NCBI GenBank assembly: GCA_943349945.1
Contig: CALQZS010000001.1
Span: 51,339-115,338 of the forward strand
From: Candidatus Nomurabacteria bacterium
GTDB taxonomy: Bacteria > Patescibacteriota > Minisyncoccia > Phycocordibacterales > SBAW01
DNA: 64,000 nucleotides
Direction of reading: 5' to 3'
Shown here: positions 2,917-63,484 of the stretch, piece after piece
Numbering within the stretch: the first letter of the stretch is position 1
Layout of the letters: each line of letters begins with the position of its first letter
The notes under the pieces: model-generated
Databases searched by the model: none
The model's input: only the letters and a program-made list of their open reading frames with translations
What the model was told of the DNA's origin: nothing
Made by a program: the position numbers and the translations under genes

Positions 2917-4113
2917 ATGCCCCAGGTAAACCCAGAAATTGAAGCTTTCGCACGAATCCGCGTCGTCGGTGTTGGCGGCTCGGGCAAAAACGCCGTCAAC
3001 CACATGATGGAAAGCAAAGTGCGTGGCGTCGACTTTGTCGTGGTTAACACCGACGCACAAGACCTCCACCACAGCCTCGCAAAGAAAAAAATCCACATCG
3101 GCAAAAACCTGACCCGCGGTTTGGGTGCGGGCGCAAACCCAGACTTGGGCCGCCGCGCCGCCGAAGAAACTAAGGAAGAAATTCAGCAAGCCATGAAGGG
3201 CTCAGACATGGTGTTTATCGCTTGCGGTATGGGCGGCGGCACCGGCACAGGTGCCGCACCTGTGGTAGCCAAAACTGCAAAAGAGCTGGGCGCCCTGACC
3301 GTCGCAGTGGTAACCAAACCATTTTCATTCGAAGGGCAGCAGCGCCTACGCATGGCCGAGCAAGGTTTGGAGGATTTGCGCAAAGAGGTGGACGCGCTCA
3401 TCGTCATCCCCAACGACCGCATCTTGGCCACAGTAGCCAAAGACACCACGCTCAAGGCAGCGTTTGCCTTGTGTGACGATATTTTAAAACAAGCAGTCGA
3501 GGGAATTTCTGACCTTATCACCCACCCCGGCATCATCAACGTCGACTTTGCCGACATCCGCGCCGTTATGGAAAACGCCGGCTCGGCACTTATGGGTATT
3601 GGTGTTGCGTCGGGCGAAAACCGCGCAGCGGTTGCTGCCAAAGCAGCCGTATCCTCGCCACTGCTTGAGCTGTCTATAAACGGTGCAAAAGGTGTGCTGT
3701 TTGCGATCGCCGGTGGCGACGACCTGGGGATGGTAGAAGTGCACGAGGCAGCAAAAATCATCACCGAGTCAGTGGATGCAAATGCCAAAATCATCTTTGG
3801 TGCAATCAAAGACGAAAAACTCAAGAAAAACGACGTACGCGTAACGGTCATTGCAACTGGCTTCCCCGCTGTAGGCGTAACGCCTCGTGGCACACCATTG
3901 TTTAACTTTGCCCGCGACACAAAAGAAAAAGAGCCTGACGTCGCCCCTATCGGCAAAATATTTAACACACCAGCAGCACCCACAAAAGAAAAAGAGGAGG
4001 AGCCTAAAAAAGCCCCTGTCCAAGAGATTGAAGTGAAGCCAAAAAAAGACGAGGACGAAGACGATGAGTGGGGCGCGGTACCATCCTTCCTTCGCCGACC
4101 AAAAATTAAATAA
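2917..4113 (+). CDS. ftsZ: cell division GTPase FtsZ
   Basis: Contains IRVVGVGGSGKNAV and the GGGTGTGAAPVVA tubulin signature. The Met at 2917 gives an N-terminus of typical length (ORF 2872..4113). Confidence 0.95.
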   Translation: MPQVNPEIEAFARIRVVGVGGSGKNAVNHMMESKVRGVDFVVVNTDAQDLHHSLAKKKIHIGKNLTRGLGAGANPDLGRRAAEETKEEIQQAMKGSDMVFIACGMGGGTGTGAAPVVAKTAKELGALTVAVVTKPFSFEGQQRLRMAEQGLEDLRKEVDALIVIPNDRILATVAKDTTLKAAFALCDDILKQAVEGISDLITHPGIINVDFADIRAVMENAGSALMGIGVASGENRAAVAAKAAVSSPLLELSINGAKGVLFAIAGGDDLGMVEVHEAAKIITESVDANAKIIFGAIKDEKLKKNDVRVTVIATGFPAVGVTPRGTPLFNFARDTKEKEPDVAPIGKIFNTPAAPTKEKEEEPKKAPVQEIEVKPKKDEDEDDEWGAVPSFLRRPKIK

Positions 4114-4119
4114 AAATCC

Positions 4120-4192
4120 GCGAGTAAATAAGAAAAAGAGTGCGCTCCGGGCCGCTAGGCCAAGTCTAACCCTCTTTTTCTTATTTACTCGC
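4120..4192. repeat. perfect 21-bp inverted repeat (gcgagtaaataagaaaaagag / ctctttttcttatttactcgc) around a 31-nt GC-rich loop, downstream of ftsZ
   Basis: Arms at 4120-4140 and 4172-4192 are exact reverse complements. The stem is AT-rich and there is no U-tract after it. Confidence 0.8.
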
Positions 4193-4217
4193 TCCTCTCT
4201 ACTGGTATACTATCTCC

Positions 4218-5476: not shown

Positions 5477-5751
5477 AGTAGCCCACTCCCCCCTGGAGCA
5501 AAGGCCCATACAACAGCCTCCGGTCCTTGCCGTCCTTTGCCCATACAGTAGACGATGACATCGTCCACAGTAGGGACAGTAGTCTCCCTTTCTTCCAGGA
5601 ATTCGGTCCCCTCGGGGTTCATCTTCCTACCATTTGCAGTATGGAAGAAGAGCCCACGGTGAAAGAGTCTGACCCCAAGGAAACCGAACCCTCCTCCGCT
5701 TCTGTTGGGGTAGAAGCGCACTACTCGCGCGCGTCCTATGGTTGTGTCCAT
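5473..5751 (-). CDS. hypothetical small protein (92 aa) upstream of the HTH gene
   Basis: Internal Met of ORF 5473..5928. The upstream part of that ORF lies in AT-rich promoter DNA. Its stop abuts the start of the HTH gene. Confidence 0.3.
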   Translation of the reverse strand: MDTTIGRARVVRFYPNRSGGGFGFLGVRLFHRGLFFHTANGRKMNPEGTEFLEERETTVPTVDDVIVYCMGKGRQGPEAVVWAFAPGGSGLL

Positions 5752-5920
5752 TAAAAAGAACTCACGTACACCACCTGATTTTCTTTGAACCCAAGCATTC
5801 TGCAAAGGTCTGGCGGCAAACAGACAATACAATTTATATTTAGATATGTCAAATTTCTCAACAACTGGACAGTTTGTCTTAAATATGCTATAATTAAACG
5901 CAGGGAGTAAGGAGGTAAGA

Positions 5921-6942: not shown

Positions 6943-6994
6943 AGCCAAGATGGGGATAACTTTTTTGTGGGATAATTAAAGGCTTTTGTTTATT

Positions 6995-7015
6995 TGTGAC
7001 CTCACCGGGAATCAG
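6995..7015. repeat. direct repeat of the tRNA-Glu 3' end, 175 nt downstream of that tRNA
   Basis: tgtgacctcaccgggaatc here versus tgtgaccccaccgggaatc at 7170-7188 (1 mismatch). Confidence 0.7.
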
Positions 7016-7171
7016 CTGCACGAAATTGTTTAATTTTCATGGTCACAAGTCAAATTTTGTCGTCACAAAATTCGCTCGCGACCCCGGCTCGCGATTTTGC
7101 AAGTGCAAAACATCGCTACGCCCGTCCCAAAAGCAGAAAACCTGCCGCAGGGCAGGTATTTCTGTCTTTTG

Positions 7172-7243
7172 TGACCCCACCGGGAATCGAACCCGGATTA
7201 ACGGCTTGAAAAGCCGGCGTCCTAACCGTTAGACGATGGGGCC
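7172..7243 (-). tRNA. tRNA-Glu (anticodon TTC)
   Basis: Cloverleaf GGCCCCA...CTTTTCAAG...GGTTCGATTCC...TGGGGTCA. CCA is not encoded. Confidence 0.85.
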
Positions 7244-7327
7244 GTTTACCCACCCACTTGGGCGGATACAATGCAAAATATAGCTTAAAACTCAAAAAAA
7301 TGCTATTTTGCGGAAGACTAGACTCAA

Positions 7328-7414
7328 GGAGAGGTGGCTGAGTGGTCTAAGGCACCGGTTTCGAAAACCGGCATGGGGGAAACCTCATCGAGGGTTCAAA
7401 TCCCTCCCTCTCCG
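7328..7414 (+). tRNA. tRNA-Ser (anticodon CGA)
   Basis: GGAGAGG acceptor stem, anticodon loop TTCGAAA, long variable arm, and T-loop GGTTCAAATCC. Confidence 0.9.
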
Positions 7415-7420
7415 CAAGTA

Positions 7421-7450
7421 AAAAATACGCGCCATTTGGCGCCATTTTTT
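7421..7450. terminator. intrinsic terminator after tRNA-Ser (A-run, GCGCC/GGCGC stem, T-run)
   Basis: Sequence aaaaaatacgcgccatttggcgccatttttt. Confidence 0.7.
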
Positions 7451-7583
7451 AGCGAAGAGGAACAAAGTGCGGGGCACTTTGTGTGAGGTATTTGAAAGCC
7501 GGAACGGGCCCCGGACCAGCAGGTACGGGGGTGAGGCAGGGTCGTGCGGCCAAAGTTGCGACGGGAACTTTGGGACGCCTGAC

Positions 7584-7604
7584 CAAATCCCTCCCTCTCC
7601 GCAA
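7584..7604. repeat. exact 21-nt direct repeat of the tRNA-Ser(CGA) 3' end (caaatccctccctctccgcaa)
   Basis: Identical to 7397-7417. It lies 187 nt downstream of the tRNA, at the left edge of a low-GC island. Confidence 0.85.
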
Positions 7605-7637
7605 AAGTTCGAAATTATAATATGGTATAACTCCTTT

Positions 7638-8237
7638 GTGGACATTGCTGCACAAATTTTAGCATTTTTTGGAAACAACACGCCCCTGGTATCTTTTTTT
7701 GGAGCAATTATAGGTGGCGAAGAAACTCTCGTATTGCTTGTTATTTTTGCAGCGCGAGACACGCTTAACCTTTGGCACATTGTAATCTTTTTTTATGCCG
7801 GAGTAATGGTGTCAGATGCTTTGTGGTACCTGGTCGGCAGATCCAGAGTATTTAATTGGCTCATCACGCACAGACTTACGTTTAATGCATATACCTATTG
7901 GGGAAAGATGCTATACAAAACCATGGGCAACAACACACTGGAAGTATTGTTCATGACTAAATTTTTATATGGTTTTAGAATCCCTACCATCATGTATTTT
8001 GCTCAAGAACGTTTGTCGTTTCGAGCTTTTATACAATACTCACTACTGACCAACTTGATTTGGATGACCATAATCACCGTCTTTGCATGGTTTGCAGGAA
8101 AAGGTATCAAATTTGCTATGCATTTTTCACACAACATTCTCCTGGACGTCTTCCTCATTGGTGTGGTTATGGTTCTTTTTGCTCTTGTTGCTAGAATTGC
8201 CTCAAAGTACACAAAATCATGGCTCCAAAAGAAATAA
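7638..8237 (+). CDS. DedA/VTT-family-like integral membrane protein (start uncertain)
   Basis: Multi-TM protein with a GGEETLVLL segment resembling the DedA PGE..L.LAG motif. It sits in a ~40% GC region. The GTG at 7638 is the first plausible start after the tRNA repeat; the upstream part of ORF 7467..8237 overlaps the repeat and is rejected. Confidence 0.5.
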   Translation: MDIAAQILAFFGNNTPLVSFFGAIIGGEETLVLLVIFAARDTLNLWHIVIFFYAGVMVSDALWYLVGRSRVFNWLITHRLTFNAYTYWGKMLYKTMGNNTLEVLFMTKFLYGFRIPTIMYFAQERLSFRAFIQYSLLTNLIWMTIITVFAWFAGKGIKFAMHFSHNILLDVFLIGVVMVLFALVARIASKYTKSWLQKK

Positions 8238-9764: not shown

Positions 9765-10603
9765 TGGATTTCAAAGACAGAGTCATCCTCTACCACGGCA
9801 ACTGCCTCGACGGCTTTGGCGCGGCGTATGCTGCCTGGAAAAAATTTGGCGACTCCGCAAGTTATATTGCAGTCTTCCATGGCGACGCACCACCTACAGG
9901 ACTTGAGGGTAAGGAGGTATACATCGCCGACTTTAGCTATCCAAAAGAGCAGCTACTCGAGCTGGAGAGGCAGGCAAAGCGCCTGGTCGTGCTCGACCAT
10001 CACGAAGGGGCAAAGGGGTATGTCGAGCTTGTTCGCGAGCACATCTTCGACAACGACCGCTCGGGCAGCGGCATCGCGTGGGAGTATTTTAACCCCAACA
10101 TTCCCCTGCCTCGCCTACTTGCCTACATACAAGACGGCGACTTGTGGCGACACAGCCTGCCGCAGTGGCGCGAAGTTGGGGCATATCTAAGCACCGCGGC
10201 ATTTACCTTCGAAACCTTTGACACCCTCGCCATAACATTTGCAGACGATGTGGAGTTTGAAAAAATAATCCAAAAAGGCGCAGCCTTTGCCGAGTATCGC
10301 GACTACCTGTGCCAAAAGTTTATCGAGAACGCAGAAGAGGTGCAGCTGGACGAGTTTAGTGTGCTTGCCGTCAACACGCCGCGGCTTTTTAATTCTCAAG
10401 TGGGCAACCTGTTAGCACAGAAGCATCCACCCTTTGCAATTGTGTGGTATCCAAGTGATAAAGATTGGCATTTTTCGCTCCGCGGCACAGGCGAAGTAGA
10501 CTTGGCTGCTGTGGCACAGCGCCGCGGCGGCAACGGCCATCACAATGCGGCAAGCTTCCGTATCCCCTTTGGACAACCATTCCCGTTTACTCGCAAAGGT
10601 TAG
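9764..10603 (+). CDS. nrnA: DHH/DHHA1 phosphoesterase (NrnA-like nanoRNase/pAp phosphatase)
   Basis: Motifs VLDHH and GGNGHHNAASF. The ATG overlaps the tRNA-Val CCA by 1 nt. Confidence 0.8.
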   Translation: MDFKDRVILYHGNCLDGFGAAYAAWKKFGDSASYIAVFHGDAPPTGLEGKEVYIADFSYPKEQLLELERQAKRLVVLDHHEGAKGYVELVREHIFDNDRSGSGIAWEYFNPNIPLPRLLAYIQDGDLWRHSLPQWREVGAYLSTAAFTFETFDTLAITFADDVEFEKIIQKGAAFAEYRDYLCQKFIENAEEVQLDEFSVLAVNTPRLFNSQVGNLLAQKHPPFAIVWYPSDKDWHFSLRGTGEVDLAAVAQRRGGNGHHNAASFRIPFGQPFPFTRKG

Positions 10604-10605
10604 TT

Positions 10606-11850
10606 ATGCGTGTACTAGCAATAGAAACGTCGTGCGATGAGACAGGTATCGCGATAGTAGAAGGTATAAAAACTAGCGCACCAGGAGGTTTTACCTTTAC
10701 CCTTTTGGGTGCTGCGGCGCTCAACTCGCAAGCAGCACTGCACGCACACTACGGCGGCGTCTTTCCCAGCCTTGCCAAGCGCGAGCACGAAAAAAACTTG
10801 CCGGTTATTTTAGCGCAGGCACTAATGCATGCACAGCCGAAATTCGCACGAGAAAATAGTCTGGCCCGAAGCTCGTCCGAAGACGAGCAAGGGAGAACCG
10901 AGGACTTTTTCGAGGCGAATTTTGGCGAAGCAATAAACGCTTTACACATAGACGCCATAGCCGTGACCCAAGGCCCTGGGCTTGAACCCGCACTGTGGAC
11001 AGGTATCACCTTTGCACAAAACCTCGCAAAAGAAACAGGACTGCCGTTGTTGCTAGCCAACCATATGGAAGGGCATCTTATCTCATCTCTTGCACAACCC
11101 GAACATTCTAGCATTCTGCAGAATGCTAGAATGTTTACACTAGAAAATGTGCAGCTACCAGTGCTTGCACTGCTCATCTCGGGCGGACACAGCGAATTTG
11201 TGTTGATGAAAAACTGGTTCGAATACTCCGTAGTGGGAGAGACACAAGACGACGCCGTAGGCGAAGCCTTCGACAAAGTTGCACGCATGCTCGGACTCCC
11301 CTACCCAGGCGGCCCCGAGATATCCAAAATTGCTGATGTCGCTAGAAAAGCGAAGATGCAGAGTTTGGAGGGGCTCCACAGCGCGTCTGCATCTTCGCTT
11401 GTTCTCCCACGCCCTATGCTCCACAGCAAAAATTTAGACCTTTCTTTTTCTGGACTCAAGACCGCTGTACTGTACGCGCTGCGCGACTTGGGCGGCATAC
11501 AAAAACTATCGCACGAGCAGATAGCAGAATTTGCCCGAGAGTTTGAAGATGCCGTAGCCGACGTGCTGGTAGCCAAAACTCGGCGCGCATTGGAAGAAAC
11601 TGGCGCCCAAACATTTGTAATCGGCGGCGGTGTTGCAGCAAACACCTACCTACGCGAGAGGCTTAGCGCGTGCGTGCAAAACGAGTTCCCCCACGTGGCC
11701 CTGCGACTCCCCGACCTCTCTATAACAGGCGACAACGGCATCATGGTGGCACAGGCTGCGCTTGCCCGCGCACTTTCTGGCTTGGACGACACCCCAAAGG
11801 GCGAGGTACGCGCCTACAGCAATAGGTTCTCGATTTTAGCGCCAAAATAG
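10606..11850 (+). CDS. tsaD: tRNA N6-adenosine threonylcarbamoyltransferase TsaD
   Basis: Contains LAIETSCDETGIAIV and VIGGGVAANTYLRERL. Start is taken at MRVLAIE within ORF 10465..11850. Confidence 0.9.
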   Translation: MRVLAIETSCDETGIAIVEGIKTSAPGGFTFTLLGAAALNSQAALHAHYGGVFPSLAKREHEKNLPVILAQALMHAQPKFARENSLARSSSEDEQGRTEDFFEANFGEAINALHIDAIAVTQGPGLEPALWTGITFAQNLAKETGLPLLLANHMEGHLISSLAQPEHSSILQNARMFTLENVQLPVLALLISGGHSEFVLMKNWFEYSVVGETQDDAVGEAFDKVARMLGLPYPGGPEISKIADVARKAKMQSLEGLHSASASSLVLPRPMLHSKNLDLSFSGLKTAVLYALRDLGGIQKLSHEQIAEFAREFEDAVADVLVAKTRRALEETGAQTFVIGGGVAANTYLRERLSACVQNEFPHVALRLPDLSITGDNGIMVAQAALARALSGLDDTPKGEVRAYSNRFSILAPK

Positions 11851-16104: not shown

Positions 16105-16179
16105 TGAAAGGTATAAACATTCCGCCTGCGCGGAATTTTATGCTTTCATGCCGGCCGCTTTGTGACAACGCTCAAACCC

Positions 16180-23096: not shown

Positions 23097-23490
23097 CCCC
23101 GCTTTTGGCGGGGCGTCTACAATATCTAGCGCGCGCGTCTGTAAGCCGAGTTCTGTCTCCGCCGGTTGGCGGAAGCAACAATTTATCTAGCTCGGGCGTT
23201 ACCGCCCGAGTCAAGCGGCACTCCCACACAAGGTGGGCACGGCCTTGCACTTGGACAAGGATTTAGCTCCGACACCCCGAAGGGGTCGGAGTCCCGGTTT
23301 ATTACGTCGGGACCGTTTCACTCCCACTGAAGGGACTCGTCTCTGTTCGCACCTCTGGTGCCCGCTAGCAGCACCCGATGGGGATTACCCACTGCCTGTC
23401 TGCACTCCACATTTCTGTAGAGGCAAGTGCTCGGACTTTCCTCTCTGACTATTCGTCAGAGCTGTTACTCGACGCGCTCTCTATATTGTA
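23097..23490 (-). ncRNA. rnpB: RNase P RNA (bacterial type)
   Basis: On the minus strand: P4 region GAGGAAAGTCCGAGCAC, GGGAGTGAAACGG, ACAGAACTCGGCTTACAG, and P1 pairing between the 23471-23490 and 23120-23140 regions. A hairpin follows at 23095-23116. Ends are approximate. Confidence 0.75.
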
Positions 23491-26811: not shown

Positions 26812-26893
26812 AAGCTGCGGAGGCGGAGAAACGATTCGGCTTCGATTCGCTGTCGCGCCGTCGCGCAACAGCGGTCTAGCCACCGCCTCGCAA
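26812..26893 (-). pseudogene. degenerate tRNA-Ser-like relic
   Basis: tgcggaggcggaga...gattcg matches the 3' end of tRNA-Ser(GGA) 190 nt away. Its 5' part (GCGAGGCGGTGGCTAGACC) is tRNA-like but cannot fold. Confidence 0.35.
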
Positions 26894-27007
26894 AAACTTT
26901 CTGCTGAAAGTTTTATGCTCCGGCGTTCGAATCTCTCACGCAAAGTACGCAGGTACTTTGCTCGCCTCTCGCAAAATCAAAACGCCCGTTTTGGGCGTTG
27001 GATTTTG

Positions 27008-27092
27008 CGGAGGCGGAGAGATTCGAACTCTCGGTGGGTTGCCCCACACAGACGTTCCAGGTCTGCGCACTAGACCACTATGCGACGCCTCC
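27008..27092 (-). tRNA. tRNA-Ser (anticodon GGA)
   Basis: GGAGGCGTCGCATAGTGGTCTAGTGCG, anticodon loop CTGGAAC, long variable arm, GAGTTCGAATCTC. CCA is not encoded. Confidence 0.85.
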
Positions 27093-63221: not shown

Positions 63222-63242
63222 TTGCTGCCAGACTAGGATTCG
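63222..63242. repeat. exact 21-nt direct repeat of the tRNA-Gln 3' end (ttgctgccagactaggattcg)
   Basis: Identical to 63411-63431, with an offset of 189 nt. Confidence 0.8.
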
Positions 63243-63413
63243 GTCACGAATCACTAACTATTTTACTTCGGCACCTCGTAAAATACTAAGTGTTCTCGAC
63301 CCCGACTCAAAAATTCATTCCCCGAACGAATTTTTTCCGTCCTTCGAATCCTCAACTTCAAGCAGATTAGCGCACAGAAAAACCGCCCTCTCGGGCGGCC
63401 ATCTGTGCGCTTG

Positions 63414-63484
63414 CTGCCAGACTAGGATTCGAACCTAGATAAACAGATTCAGAGTCTGTTGTCCTACCATTAGACGATCTGGCA
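63414..63484 (-). tRNA. tRNA-Gln (anticodon CTG)
   Basis: U1:A72 acceptor (TGCCAGA / TCTGGCA), anticodon loop CTCTGAA, GGTTCGAATCC. CCA is not encoded. Confidence 0.85.

Follow-up and report, generated by a model that had tools for sequence, protein, structure and literature searches.

We analyzed a 64-kb stretch of DNA from Candidatus Nomurabacteria bacterium (contig CALQZS010000001.1, positions 51,339 to 115,338; this whole stretch is called the window below), in which short structured units stand directly behind several tRNA genes and end with a second copy of the 3' end of the respective gene. ARAGORN found eight tRNA genes in the window. Four of them, tRNA-Glu, tRNA-Ser(CGA), tRNA-Ser(GGA), and tRNA-Gln, have no encoded CCA; each is followed directly on its 3' side by a terminator-like hairpin and, farther downstream on the tRNA strand, by a copy that spans the tRNA sequence from C56 in the T-loop to C74 plus one or two A. 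The genes of tRNA-Val, tRNA-Phe, and tRNA-Gly have the CCA encoded and no copy of the 3' end. With up to two mismatches allowed, the search of the whole window showed one extra copy per 3' end and none elsewhere.

The repeats had been pointed out in an initial annotation made from the sequence alone. The exact 21-nt repeat of tRNA-Ser(CGA), 7397-7417 recurring at 7584-7604 (offset 187), is present as it was described, and so are the repeats of tRNA-Ser(GGA) and tRNA-Gln at the offsets 190 and 189; all four cases with their similar spacing are in the sequence, as is the terminator-like hairpin directly after each of the four tRNAs. For tRNA-Glu the repeat and its single mismatch were right, but the coordinates had to be corrected: the 21-nt segment 7168-7188 (minus strand) recurs at 6993-7013 with 20 identical nucleotides and the offset 175. 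The Ser(GGA) repeat (27007-27021, recurring at 26817-26831) is an exact 14-mer that reaches 23 nt with a 2-nt indel, and the exact Gln repeat (21 nt) lies at 63222-63242. The sequence between the tRNA and the repeat had been taken for a non-coding spacer. We found no open reading frame (ORF) within the units of 110-190 nt; however, this is not a mere spacer, since in all four cases it is homologous, structured, and holds the complement of the repeat. Comparison of the spacers, suggested as a check, shows one homologous unit in four of four. The structured homologous spacer, the complement of the repeat, and a remnant at tRNA-Arg(CCT) had been overlooked.

Read along the tRNA strand, the order of parts after the tRNA end (C56-C74) is t, A', core, and A, for a total of about 110-190 nt. 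The part t consists of an A-rich trailer, a GC hairpin, and a T run; the hairpins of the Glu and Ser(CGA) units are terminator-like on both strands and the Gln hairpin on one strand only. The part A' is the reverse complement of the tRNA positions from about 76 to 54, often interrupted by a small hairpin. It starts with the 5' strand of the helix P1 (complement of the acceptor 3' strand, the discriminator, and the trailer), often continues with the small hairpin P2, which is CAAAGT..ACTTTG in both Ser units, and ends with the 5' strand of the helix P3 (complement of the T-stem 3' strand and the T-loop). We observed that A' tracks the individual tRNA; for example, it has ATTTGAA opposite the unusual TTCAAAT loop of tRNA-Ser(CGA).

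The core of about 90 nt has the form AAR / GNC-GGA-[hairpin A]-GA-GN'C / GGG / GTCGNG-[hairpin B]-YGTGAC, and the part A, the copy of C56-C74, begins directly after GTGAC. Pairing of A' and A closes the core into a three-way junction; the folds from A' to A have z-scores of -3.6 for Ser(CGA), -6.9 for Ser(GGA), and -5.4 for Gln. The Glu unit is a "short form": its 5' flank pairs, over the hairpin, with the end of the tRNA itself, and the distal copy is located 24 nt past GTGACC, the end of the core. A homologous Glu unit with a decayed distal copy is present in the related locus L037.

Insertion downstream of tRNA genes and extent of the family

The related loci used for comparison were 50 Patescibacteria loci (L001-L050) anchored on the TsaD gene; by these loci the organism is a member of the Paceibacteria (Parcubacteria) related to 'Candidatus Adlerbacteria'. 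In these loci and the window together, 18 of 184 tRNAs had a direct copy of the tRNA positions 61-73 within 450 nt downstream, and 14 of 184 had an inverted copy of the positions 54-65 within the same distance, compared to 0 of 184 with either kind of copy within 450 nt upstream (a separate count gave 19 downstream versus 0). Therefore, the repeats are real, non-random, and not limited to this genome, in line with the initial judgment that a chance origin was very unlikely. Chance and an artefact of local duplication are excluded by the absence of upstream copies and by the single extra copy per 3' end.

Empty and filled sites were found among the relatives, as had been proposed for a check. 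At tRNA-Gly(CCC) the site is empty in L007 and L005, ...CTCGCAC/ATTTACCAAGAAAAGAGTGTG, and filled in L014, ...CTCGCAC/(112 nt)CGATTCTCCCCACTCGCAC/CATTACCACGAAAACAGTGTG. The difference amounts to a 112-nt insert plus a 19-bp duplication of C56-C74, with homologous flanks downstream. Among the explanations offered initially, it is the one of miniature site-specific insertions that agrees with these data: close relatives carry the same tRNA without the unit, with an exact join of the flanks. In L035, the distal copy of the tRNA-Ser end finishes with GCCA and abuts tRNA-Glu, and the intact gene of the empty relative L021 has the same arrangement. In the unit-bearing tRNA-Val and tRNA-Gly (L008, L014), the proximal copy ends CAC/AA and the distal one CAC/CA, with the CCA kept distally. 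In 49 well-preserved units the identity of the two copies most often ends 1 nt past N73, which places the left junction after C74. The unit is inserted DNA, and the insertion is strand-specific.

With respect to the CCA end, we observed that the CCA-less tRNAs in L001-L050 mostly keep C74 followed by A (..N73-C/A..), the same junction as in the units. This raises the question whether past insertion and excision have contributed to the loss of CCA in these genomes; they may have, because the junction falls after C74.

Complete units also form head-to-tail arrays, in L127, L092, L086, L035 (6780-7110), and L055 (2900-3319). The array of L127 (9574-9927), located after tRNA-Arg(TCT), has three identical copies with a period of 134 nt. 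Cargo ORFs between the tRNA and the unit were present in L010, L131, L114, L171, L038, L141, and L187; L010 has a pair of small ORFs, and the tRNA end occurs there three times. The ORFs of these seven loci are mutually unrelated and mostly have no Pfam match, and a shared cargo protein was rejected. In L045 (9434-9800, plus strand), after tRNA-Ser(CGA), the central hairpins are replaced by a 79-aa ORF, GIY-YIG-like by eye; the arrangement is reminiscent of a structured element that harbours a homing-endonuclease gene. This ORF had no other copy among 55 sequences (the window and L001-L054), and a homing-endonuclease element was rejected as well.

The family extends well beyond the window. An nhmmer profile made of nine units detected more copies in the TsaD-anchored loci, all on the same strand as the tRNAs and just downstream of them. 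A search of metagenomes with a pattern derived from the core gave at least 120 loci with at least 131 cores, while the pattern, profile, and model searches together gave about 150 further cores in Paceibacteria genomes and metagenomes. Among the matches listed, 99 of the 131 cores had a same-strand tRNA in the 450 nt read upstream, mostly ending 27-130 nt before the core, and the remaining cores were mostly at contig ends or had cargo in between; the last 19-20 nt of the tRNA recurred right after GTGAC in 58 of these 99. Over all searches, almost every core with sufficient upstream sequence stood shortly behind a tRNA of the same strand. The tRNAs next to the listed metagenome cores represented 19 amino-acid types, and the Phe units in L023 and L014 bring this number to all 20.

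The covariance model R1 was built from 32 metagenome cores, with no window sequences. It matched exactly the four window units (46.8-72.2 bits, E from 1e-10 to 1e-16), the next best match having E 0.15, and it had 22 matches in 0.8 Mb of the related loci; nearly all of these were located relative to tRNAs, and those adjoin tRNAs. A unit is present at half of the tRNA genes of the window and at about one in ten tRNAs of the related loci.

At least two further core types stand between flanks built on the same plan, with the hairpin and A' before the core and A after it. The type 2 core is GGGTCGGGGAAC..CCGAGGG..AGTGAGATT, and its copy begins at C61; the type 3 core is ..GTACTG..CTGTAAG.., and its copy includes the T-loop. 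The other core types were found in L023 (500-8330), where units stand behind four of the tRNAs, and in L040, L041, L144, L150, and L171. Cores with 93% identity occur beside tRNA-Ser(GCT) and tRNA-Ala(GGC) on different contigs, with fully tRNA-specific flanks. Very similar type 2 cores occur beside tRNA-Ser(CGA) and tRNA-Gly(CCC) in L023, also with tRNA-specific flanks. A and A' match the particular tRNA, and units of this family, some of them in arrays and some with cargo, occur widely in Patescibacteria.

At the gathering score, Rfam 15 models matched only tRNAs and RNase P in the window and gave no match for any core type. With permissive cutoffs (E up to 10 or 0.1) nothing was reported on the units in the window and in four loci that hold all three core types. 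There was no blastn match among INPHARED phages and PLSDB plasmids, and in IMG/VR one of 13 matches was true, the tandem array of L055. Full-text literature searches returned no description of the units. The family is, therefore, undescribed in Rfam 15 and in the searched literature.

The coordinates of the window features are collected in Table 1. The remnant after tRNA-Arg(CCT) has the order of trailer, hairpin, complement of the trailer and the tRNA end (..CTTTCATGCC), then GGCCGC..TTTGTGAC. Judged by its sequence, it is probably a short-form unit with the core deleted, in which case five of the eight tRNAs of the window would have been hit.

Table 1. Positions of tRNA genes, parts of the units, and neighbouring features in the window
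Feature	Position	Strand	Evidence
tRNA-Glu(TTC), no encoded CCA; target and proximal copy	7171-7243	-	ARAGORN; Rfam tRNA
Glu unit, t: A-rich trailer and terminator-like hairpin; outer stem extends into the last bases of the tRNA	7129-7170	-	
Glu unit, three-way-junction core (GNC-GNA / hairpin A / GA-GN'C-GGG / GTCGNG hairpin B YGTGAC)	7038-7126	-	R1 72.2 bits, E 2.7e-16; homologous unit in L037
Glu unit, distal copy of the tRNA-Glu 3' end (20/21 nt)	6993-7013	-	
tRNA-Ser(CGA), no encoded CCA	7328-7415	+	ARAGORN; Rfam tRNA
Ser(CGA) unit, t: hairpin terminator-like on both strands	7416-7450	+	
Ser(CGA) unit, A'	7451-7496	+	fold z -3.6 (A' to A)
Ser(CGA) A', complement of the acceptor 3' strand	7451-7462	+	
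Ser(CGA) A', inserted hairpin P2	7463-7481	+	
Ser(CGA) A', last part: complement of the T-stem 3' strand and T-loop, including the unusual TTCAAAT loop	7485-7496	+	
Ser(CGA) unit, conserved core	7494-7587	+	R1 61.2 bits, E 1.6e-13
Ser(CGA) unit, distal exact copy: tRNA positions 56-74 and AA	7584-7604	+	
Low-GC segment	7605-9688	+	
Probable core-less short-form remnant after tRNA-Arg(CCT)	16105-16168	+	sequence reading; compare L028
RNase P RNA class A	23126-23480	-	106.3 bits (gathering score 100)
tRNA-Ser(GGA), no encoded CCA	27007-27092	-	ARAGORN; Rfam tRNA
Ser(GGA) unit	26816-27006	-	R1 53.8 bits, E 1.2e-11; fold z -6.9
Ser(GGA) unit, t	26974-27006	-	
Ser(GGA) unit, A' (P1 5' strand, P2, P3 5' strand)	26925-26973	-	
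Ser(GGA) unit, core	26835-26928	-	
Ser(GGA) unit, distal copy	26816-26838	-	
tRNA-Gln(CTG), no encoded CCA	63413-63484	-	ARAGORN; Rfam tRNA
Gln unit	63222-63412	-	R1 46.8 bits, E 6.9e-10; fold z -5.4
Gln unit, t	63369-63412	-	
Gln unit, A'	63342-63365	-	
Gln unit, core	63239-63345	-	
Gln unit, distal exact 21-nt copy	63222-63242	-	

The low-GC island noted initially at the Ser(CGA) repeat is real. It lies outside the unit, between the unit and tRNA-Val, has a GC content of 42-48% compared to about 52%, and encodes a VTT/DedA-like membrane protein and a hydrolase-glycosyltransferase-2 fusion. This segment is absent from L037, where the distance from tRNA-Ser to tRNA-Val is 137 nt and tRNA-Ser has the opposite orientation; the comparison indicates that the Ser(CGA)/Val locus underwent an inversion and a 2-kb gain.

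Structural constraint and a possible mechanism

The test of the structure was made on 32 aligned cores with a hand-drawn structure. Pairing was possible in 88.8% of the cells at paired positions, compared to 68.3% in shuffles. The covariation score was 0.555 versus 0.194 for shuffled data, and it was at most 0.196 when the partners were slid. The middle pair of GNC/GN'C, which had been left free in the search pattern, was Watson-Crick in 32 of 32 cores and was represented by four pair types. The pair G53-U90 was invariant, but it was forced by the search pattern. The partner of G55 was C in 17 cores and U in 15; on the opposite strand the latter would make a mismatch. For the hairpins A and B the sense strand gave the better fold in 136 of 194 cases and the antisense strand in 38, with 55 G-U (or G-T) pairs on the sense strand compared to 27 on the antisense strand. 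The core is under structural constraint, in our reading a constraint on the active lineages.

No sense promoter-like site was seen between the t hairpin and A' in the Ser(CGA), Ser(GGA), Gln, and Glu units, and for this reason a structure at the DNA level fits better than a dedicated RNA gene. The t hairpin has the look of an efficient terminator. In our reading, a structure that belongs to one strand and has no promoter fits a folded single strand of DNA at least as well as an RNA.

Several counts on the flanks are in line with A' and A that matched at insertion and drifted afterward. At the P3 positions 84% pair, and the two types of mismatch are equally frequent (G-T 25, A-C 24). Where the tRNA and the distal copy are discordant, A' sides with the tRNA (18 cases) far more than with the distal copy (one case). 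The 5' strand of P1 scored above all 50 shuffles in only 27 of 87 units. A model of simple ageing was tried and rejected, as there was no correlation between the decay of A'/A and the defects of the hairpins. Among the metagenome units, the A' mismatches and the distal-copy mismatches were weakly anticorrelated (rho -0.27, p 0.025), whereas simple ageing predicts a positive correlation.

We consider it highly probable that the units are non-autonomous insertion elements targeted to tRNA genes. As an explanation of the whole, we prefer a small protein-less insertion element placed directly after C74, with the repeat as its right end; when the mechanism outlined here is included, we give this account an even chance. 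A' would be the guide: it would pair with the 3' segment of the tRNA gene and so choose the insertion site, and A would be identical to the target because the same guide must recognise the element's own 3' end. A single long guide for both ends would explain an end that equals the target, strand-specific insertion, and arrays in which one element stands behind another. The element may move as a folded single strand, similarly to the IS200/IS605-derived PATEs or to the attC cassettes of integrons, and may be mobilised in trans by a separate enzyme. By analogy with those systems, the combination of target choice by A' pairing, single-strand movement, and an enzyme acting in trans is conceivable, though we hold it doubtful. 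A' and A would match at the time of insertion and drift neutrally afterward. The tRNA-matched flanks could result from core exchange between resident units by recombination, or the flanks could be copied from the target at insertion; alternatively, rare retargeting plus core exchange between units might produce the new tRNA-matched A' and A.

Several observations weigh against the insertion element with this mechanism. For a lineage to acquire a new tRNA-matched A' together with A, the mechanism would need a further step, either rare retargeting plus core exchange or some form of copying. The units have no linked transposase or recombinase; the sole Y1/HUH-like ORF is one weak Y1_Tnp match in L188, in a search of genome fragments only, and it is unlinked to any unit. 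Neither an excised circle nor an excision junction was observed. The short-form units duplicate only a few bases, and a single mechanism fits them less neatly. In 39 of 70 units the distal copy has no mismatch, which could mean selection on a host RNA. The core, moreover, looks RNA-like in some respects: its loops and a GT linker are conserved, tandem G-A motifs are present, and a TCG-to-GAG variant that recurs would put sheared tandem G-A pairs at the junction end of P3.

A stronger version of the guided insertion would make the units a new class of nucleic-acid-guided mobile elements, with A' as a guide of 12-21 nt, a core that is catalytic or recruits an enzyme, and retargeting by a change of A' and A. 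We regard this as rather improbable. The core would then be a small ribozyme or a handle for a single-strand transposase or recombinase; the core has no known convincing likeness to the hammerhead or other small ribozyme cores. If such a class exists, it would be a naturally programmable insertion cassette without a protein gene, found on nearly every tRNA type of Patescibacteria. The layout of target copy, complement, and structured core suggests a choice of site by base pairing over about 20 nt with no adjacent protein gene, which makes the units interesting both for mobile-DNA biology and with a view to programmable insertion tools. As they are so frequent in extremely reduced genomes, the units are either a parasite of unusual success or of some use to the cell. 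They also account for spurious "tRNA fragments" seen in assemblies of Patescibacteria and for the variability of the tRNA trailers there.

Alternative explanations

A structured sense RNA, encoded by the host or by the element and made by read-through of the terminator, is an explanation that we consider unlikely, although it is the most serious of the alternatives. In such an RNA the A'/A helix would mimic the top half of the neighbouring tRNA; the RNA could be processed by RNase P, RNase Z, or the CCA-adding enzyme, or the core could be a ribozyme or a scaffold for protein binding, and the repeat would exist because the RNA needs the A'/A helix for closure. The strong covariation and the sense-strand G-U bias of the core are as expected for an RNA, and so are the z-scores of the A'-to-A folds (-3.6 to -6.9), the succession of P1, P2, and P3 (recalling an acceptor stem, an arm, and a T stem), the GT linker, the tandem G-A variant, and the perfect distal copies (39/70). 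On the other hand, a terminator-like hairpin stands directly before the unit and no sense promoter was found. In P3, G-U is no more frequent than A-C, and a compensatory change that follows the distal copy is seen once versus 18 agreements with the tRNA; the P1 count (27/87) also weighs against this reading. Also, presence of the unit varies among close relatives, tandem arrays occur, several unrelated core types have the same flanks, and there is no Rfam match. The initial annotation had suggested a small antisense or regulatory RNA. An antisense RNA would run from the distal copy, with a 5' end complementary to the tRNA 3' end, to the bidirectional hairpin; we consider this very improbable. 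In its favour, the Glu and Ser(CGA) hairpins score as terminators on both strands, the Ser(CGA) unit has a sigma-70-like promoter match of 10/12 (TCCACA-17-TATAAT) directed into it from its distal end at 7642-7614 (minus strand), and the P1 helix of this unit would, on the opposite strand, have G-U in place of its two A-C mismatches. However, a single match of this kind does not exceed chance (0.9 expected), the terminator-like character of the Gln hairpin is confined to one strand, and throughout the family the opposite strand gives the poorer folds (38 versus 136 hairpins) with half the G-U pairs; G53-U90 as well as G55-U88 (15/32) would be C-A mismatches on it. The strand test over the whole family favours the tRNA-sense strand, and no sense promoter stands between the terminator and the unit. 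A small RNA is a minority possibility, and on the sense rather than the antisense strand. We saw no annotated-looking gene on the strand of the promoter-like match (7614-7642, minus strand).

The repeats could, alternatively, be attL/attR duplications from islands whose integrases, large serine or tyrosine recombinases, act at the T-loop, the tRNA 3' end being replaced by one that the island supplies; the short units would then be either deletion remnants or miniature elements moved by the same integrases. The initial annotation had listed such att-site scars among its explanations, and the geometry is the one reported for serine-recombinase islands at ssrA in Dehalococcoides (PMC3146451). In L171 a 5.3-kb island separates tRNA-Tyr from a unit, the distal copy of which is identical at 18/18 positions. 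The 509-aa large serine recombinase of the island (Resolvase, Recombinase, and Zn-ribbon domains) converges on tRNA-Tyr, and the unit lies 5.3 kb away, the only co-occurrence of a recombinase and a unit. Homologues of this recombinase abut tRNA ends in L018, L033, and L024; those of L018 and L033 converge on the tRNA and overlap its 3' end. We fetched 10 further loci of the family, and all 10 have a convergent tRNA (Lys, Leu, Tyr, Arg, or Pro) that the 3' end of the recombinase gene overlaps. None of these 10 loci has the core: there were 0 matches of R1 (E up to 0.1, 163 kb), a repeat of the tRNA end was present in 0 of 6 regions scanned, and tblastn of the L171 recombinase against the window gave no match. 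The units are complete and constant in architecture, with a structured core and a tRNA-specific complement, unlike random remnants; A' and the covarying core would be left unexplained, and one small genome would need a separate integrase per tRNA. L171 is best read, as is L010, as an island inserted between the tRNA and a unit already present. Overall, we find the att explanation quite improbable; the recombinase islands and the non-autonomous units appear to be independent users of a common hotspot.

Some features of the recombinase loci were observed in addition. The L171 recombinase gene is flanked by a 150-bp inverted repeat (4068-4217, 5674-5823) that includes its last 50 codons, and the L188 recombinase gene has a 32-nt palindrome on both sides (9795-9826, 11460-11491). 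In several of the fetched loci the called ORF continues through the whole antisense tRNA.

Comparison with known systems

MITEs and introns do not fit the units. In a MITE (miniature inverted-repeat transposable element, a DDE derivative) the terminal inverted repeats would be conserved in the family and the target duplication would be short and of fixed length, whereas the arms A'/A copy the local tRNA, and the "duplication" is the arm itself. For a group I or group II intron, the proximal tRNA is complete, no intron model matched, and the core is only about 90 nt. Group I introns in Patescibacteria tRNAs are located at the anticodon position 35/36 (PMC13011429); this position is different, and those introns are unrelated to the units.

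Islands at tRNA and tmRNA genes resemble the units in several respects. A direct repeat of the tRNA 3' end is found at both ends of the insert (19-21 nt; seen in empty and filled sites), related recombinases occur at tRNA ends in these bacteria, and tandem accretion downstream of a gene is known for the serine-recombinase islands at Dehalococcoides ssrA (PMC3146451). However, the units have no integrase inside, the neighbours in the window are not recombinases, and the units are 30-100 times smaller. They also add an inverted target copy and a covarying core, which the fetched recombinase loci do not have.

In group II introns (EBS-IBS pairing), the IS110 bridge RNA, and the TnpB/IscB omega RNA, a segment complementary (or identical) to the target stands beside a scaffold of about 100-180 nt, as it does in the units, and the target could, in principle, be changed via the guide. 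Unlike in these systems, no gene of a reverse transcriptase, DEDD recombinase, or TnpB/IscB is adjacent to the units, no Rfam model matches, and the putative guide is paired in cis with the target copy.

The attC site of integrons is likewise an imperfect palindrome with a variable structured center that is recombined as one folded strand. Cassettes are known both empty and with promoterless cargo of the same orientation, form arrays, and have a short direct repeat at each boundary. The units, on the other hand, have no R/L core-site consensus (GTTRRRY); they dock at many tRNA 3' ends, and the arms of their palindrome are tRNA-specific. In two alignments of units there was no consensus of the attC core sites (RYYYAAC / GTTRRRY), the ends being derived from the tRNA and different for each tRNA. 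No IntI was seen, and there was no recombinase among the neighbouring ORFs scanned against Pfam, although no search aimed at IntI-type recombinases was made.

Several traits are shared with the PATEs of IS200/IS605, which are moved by Y1 HUH enzymes; the guide would be one of them. These are protein-less, strand-specific elements of 100-400 bp with hairpins at both ends. They insert directly 3' of a target that is recognised by an internal guide, their own 3' end is recognised likewise, and no classical target duplication is needed. The differences are that the known guides have 4-5 nt compared to 12-21 nt for the putative guide of the units; that the left target and the right end differ and use two guides, whereas the units have one sequence; and that no tRNA specificity is known for IS200/IS605 and no linked transposase was found for the units. 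In IS200/IS605 the internal guide stands 5' of a hairpin, and it pairs with the sites of cleavage both in the flank and at the element end, which is formally the same layout. The units, for their part, are always in the tRNA-sense orientation with the junction after C74, have t at the left and the core hairpins at the right, and contain A', a putative guide, complementary to the target. The family is kindred to known small non-autonomous elements, and its distinctive trait is the long tRNA-specific complement of the target beside a conserved three-way-junction core.

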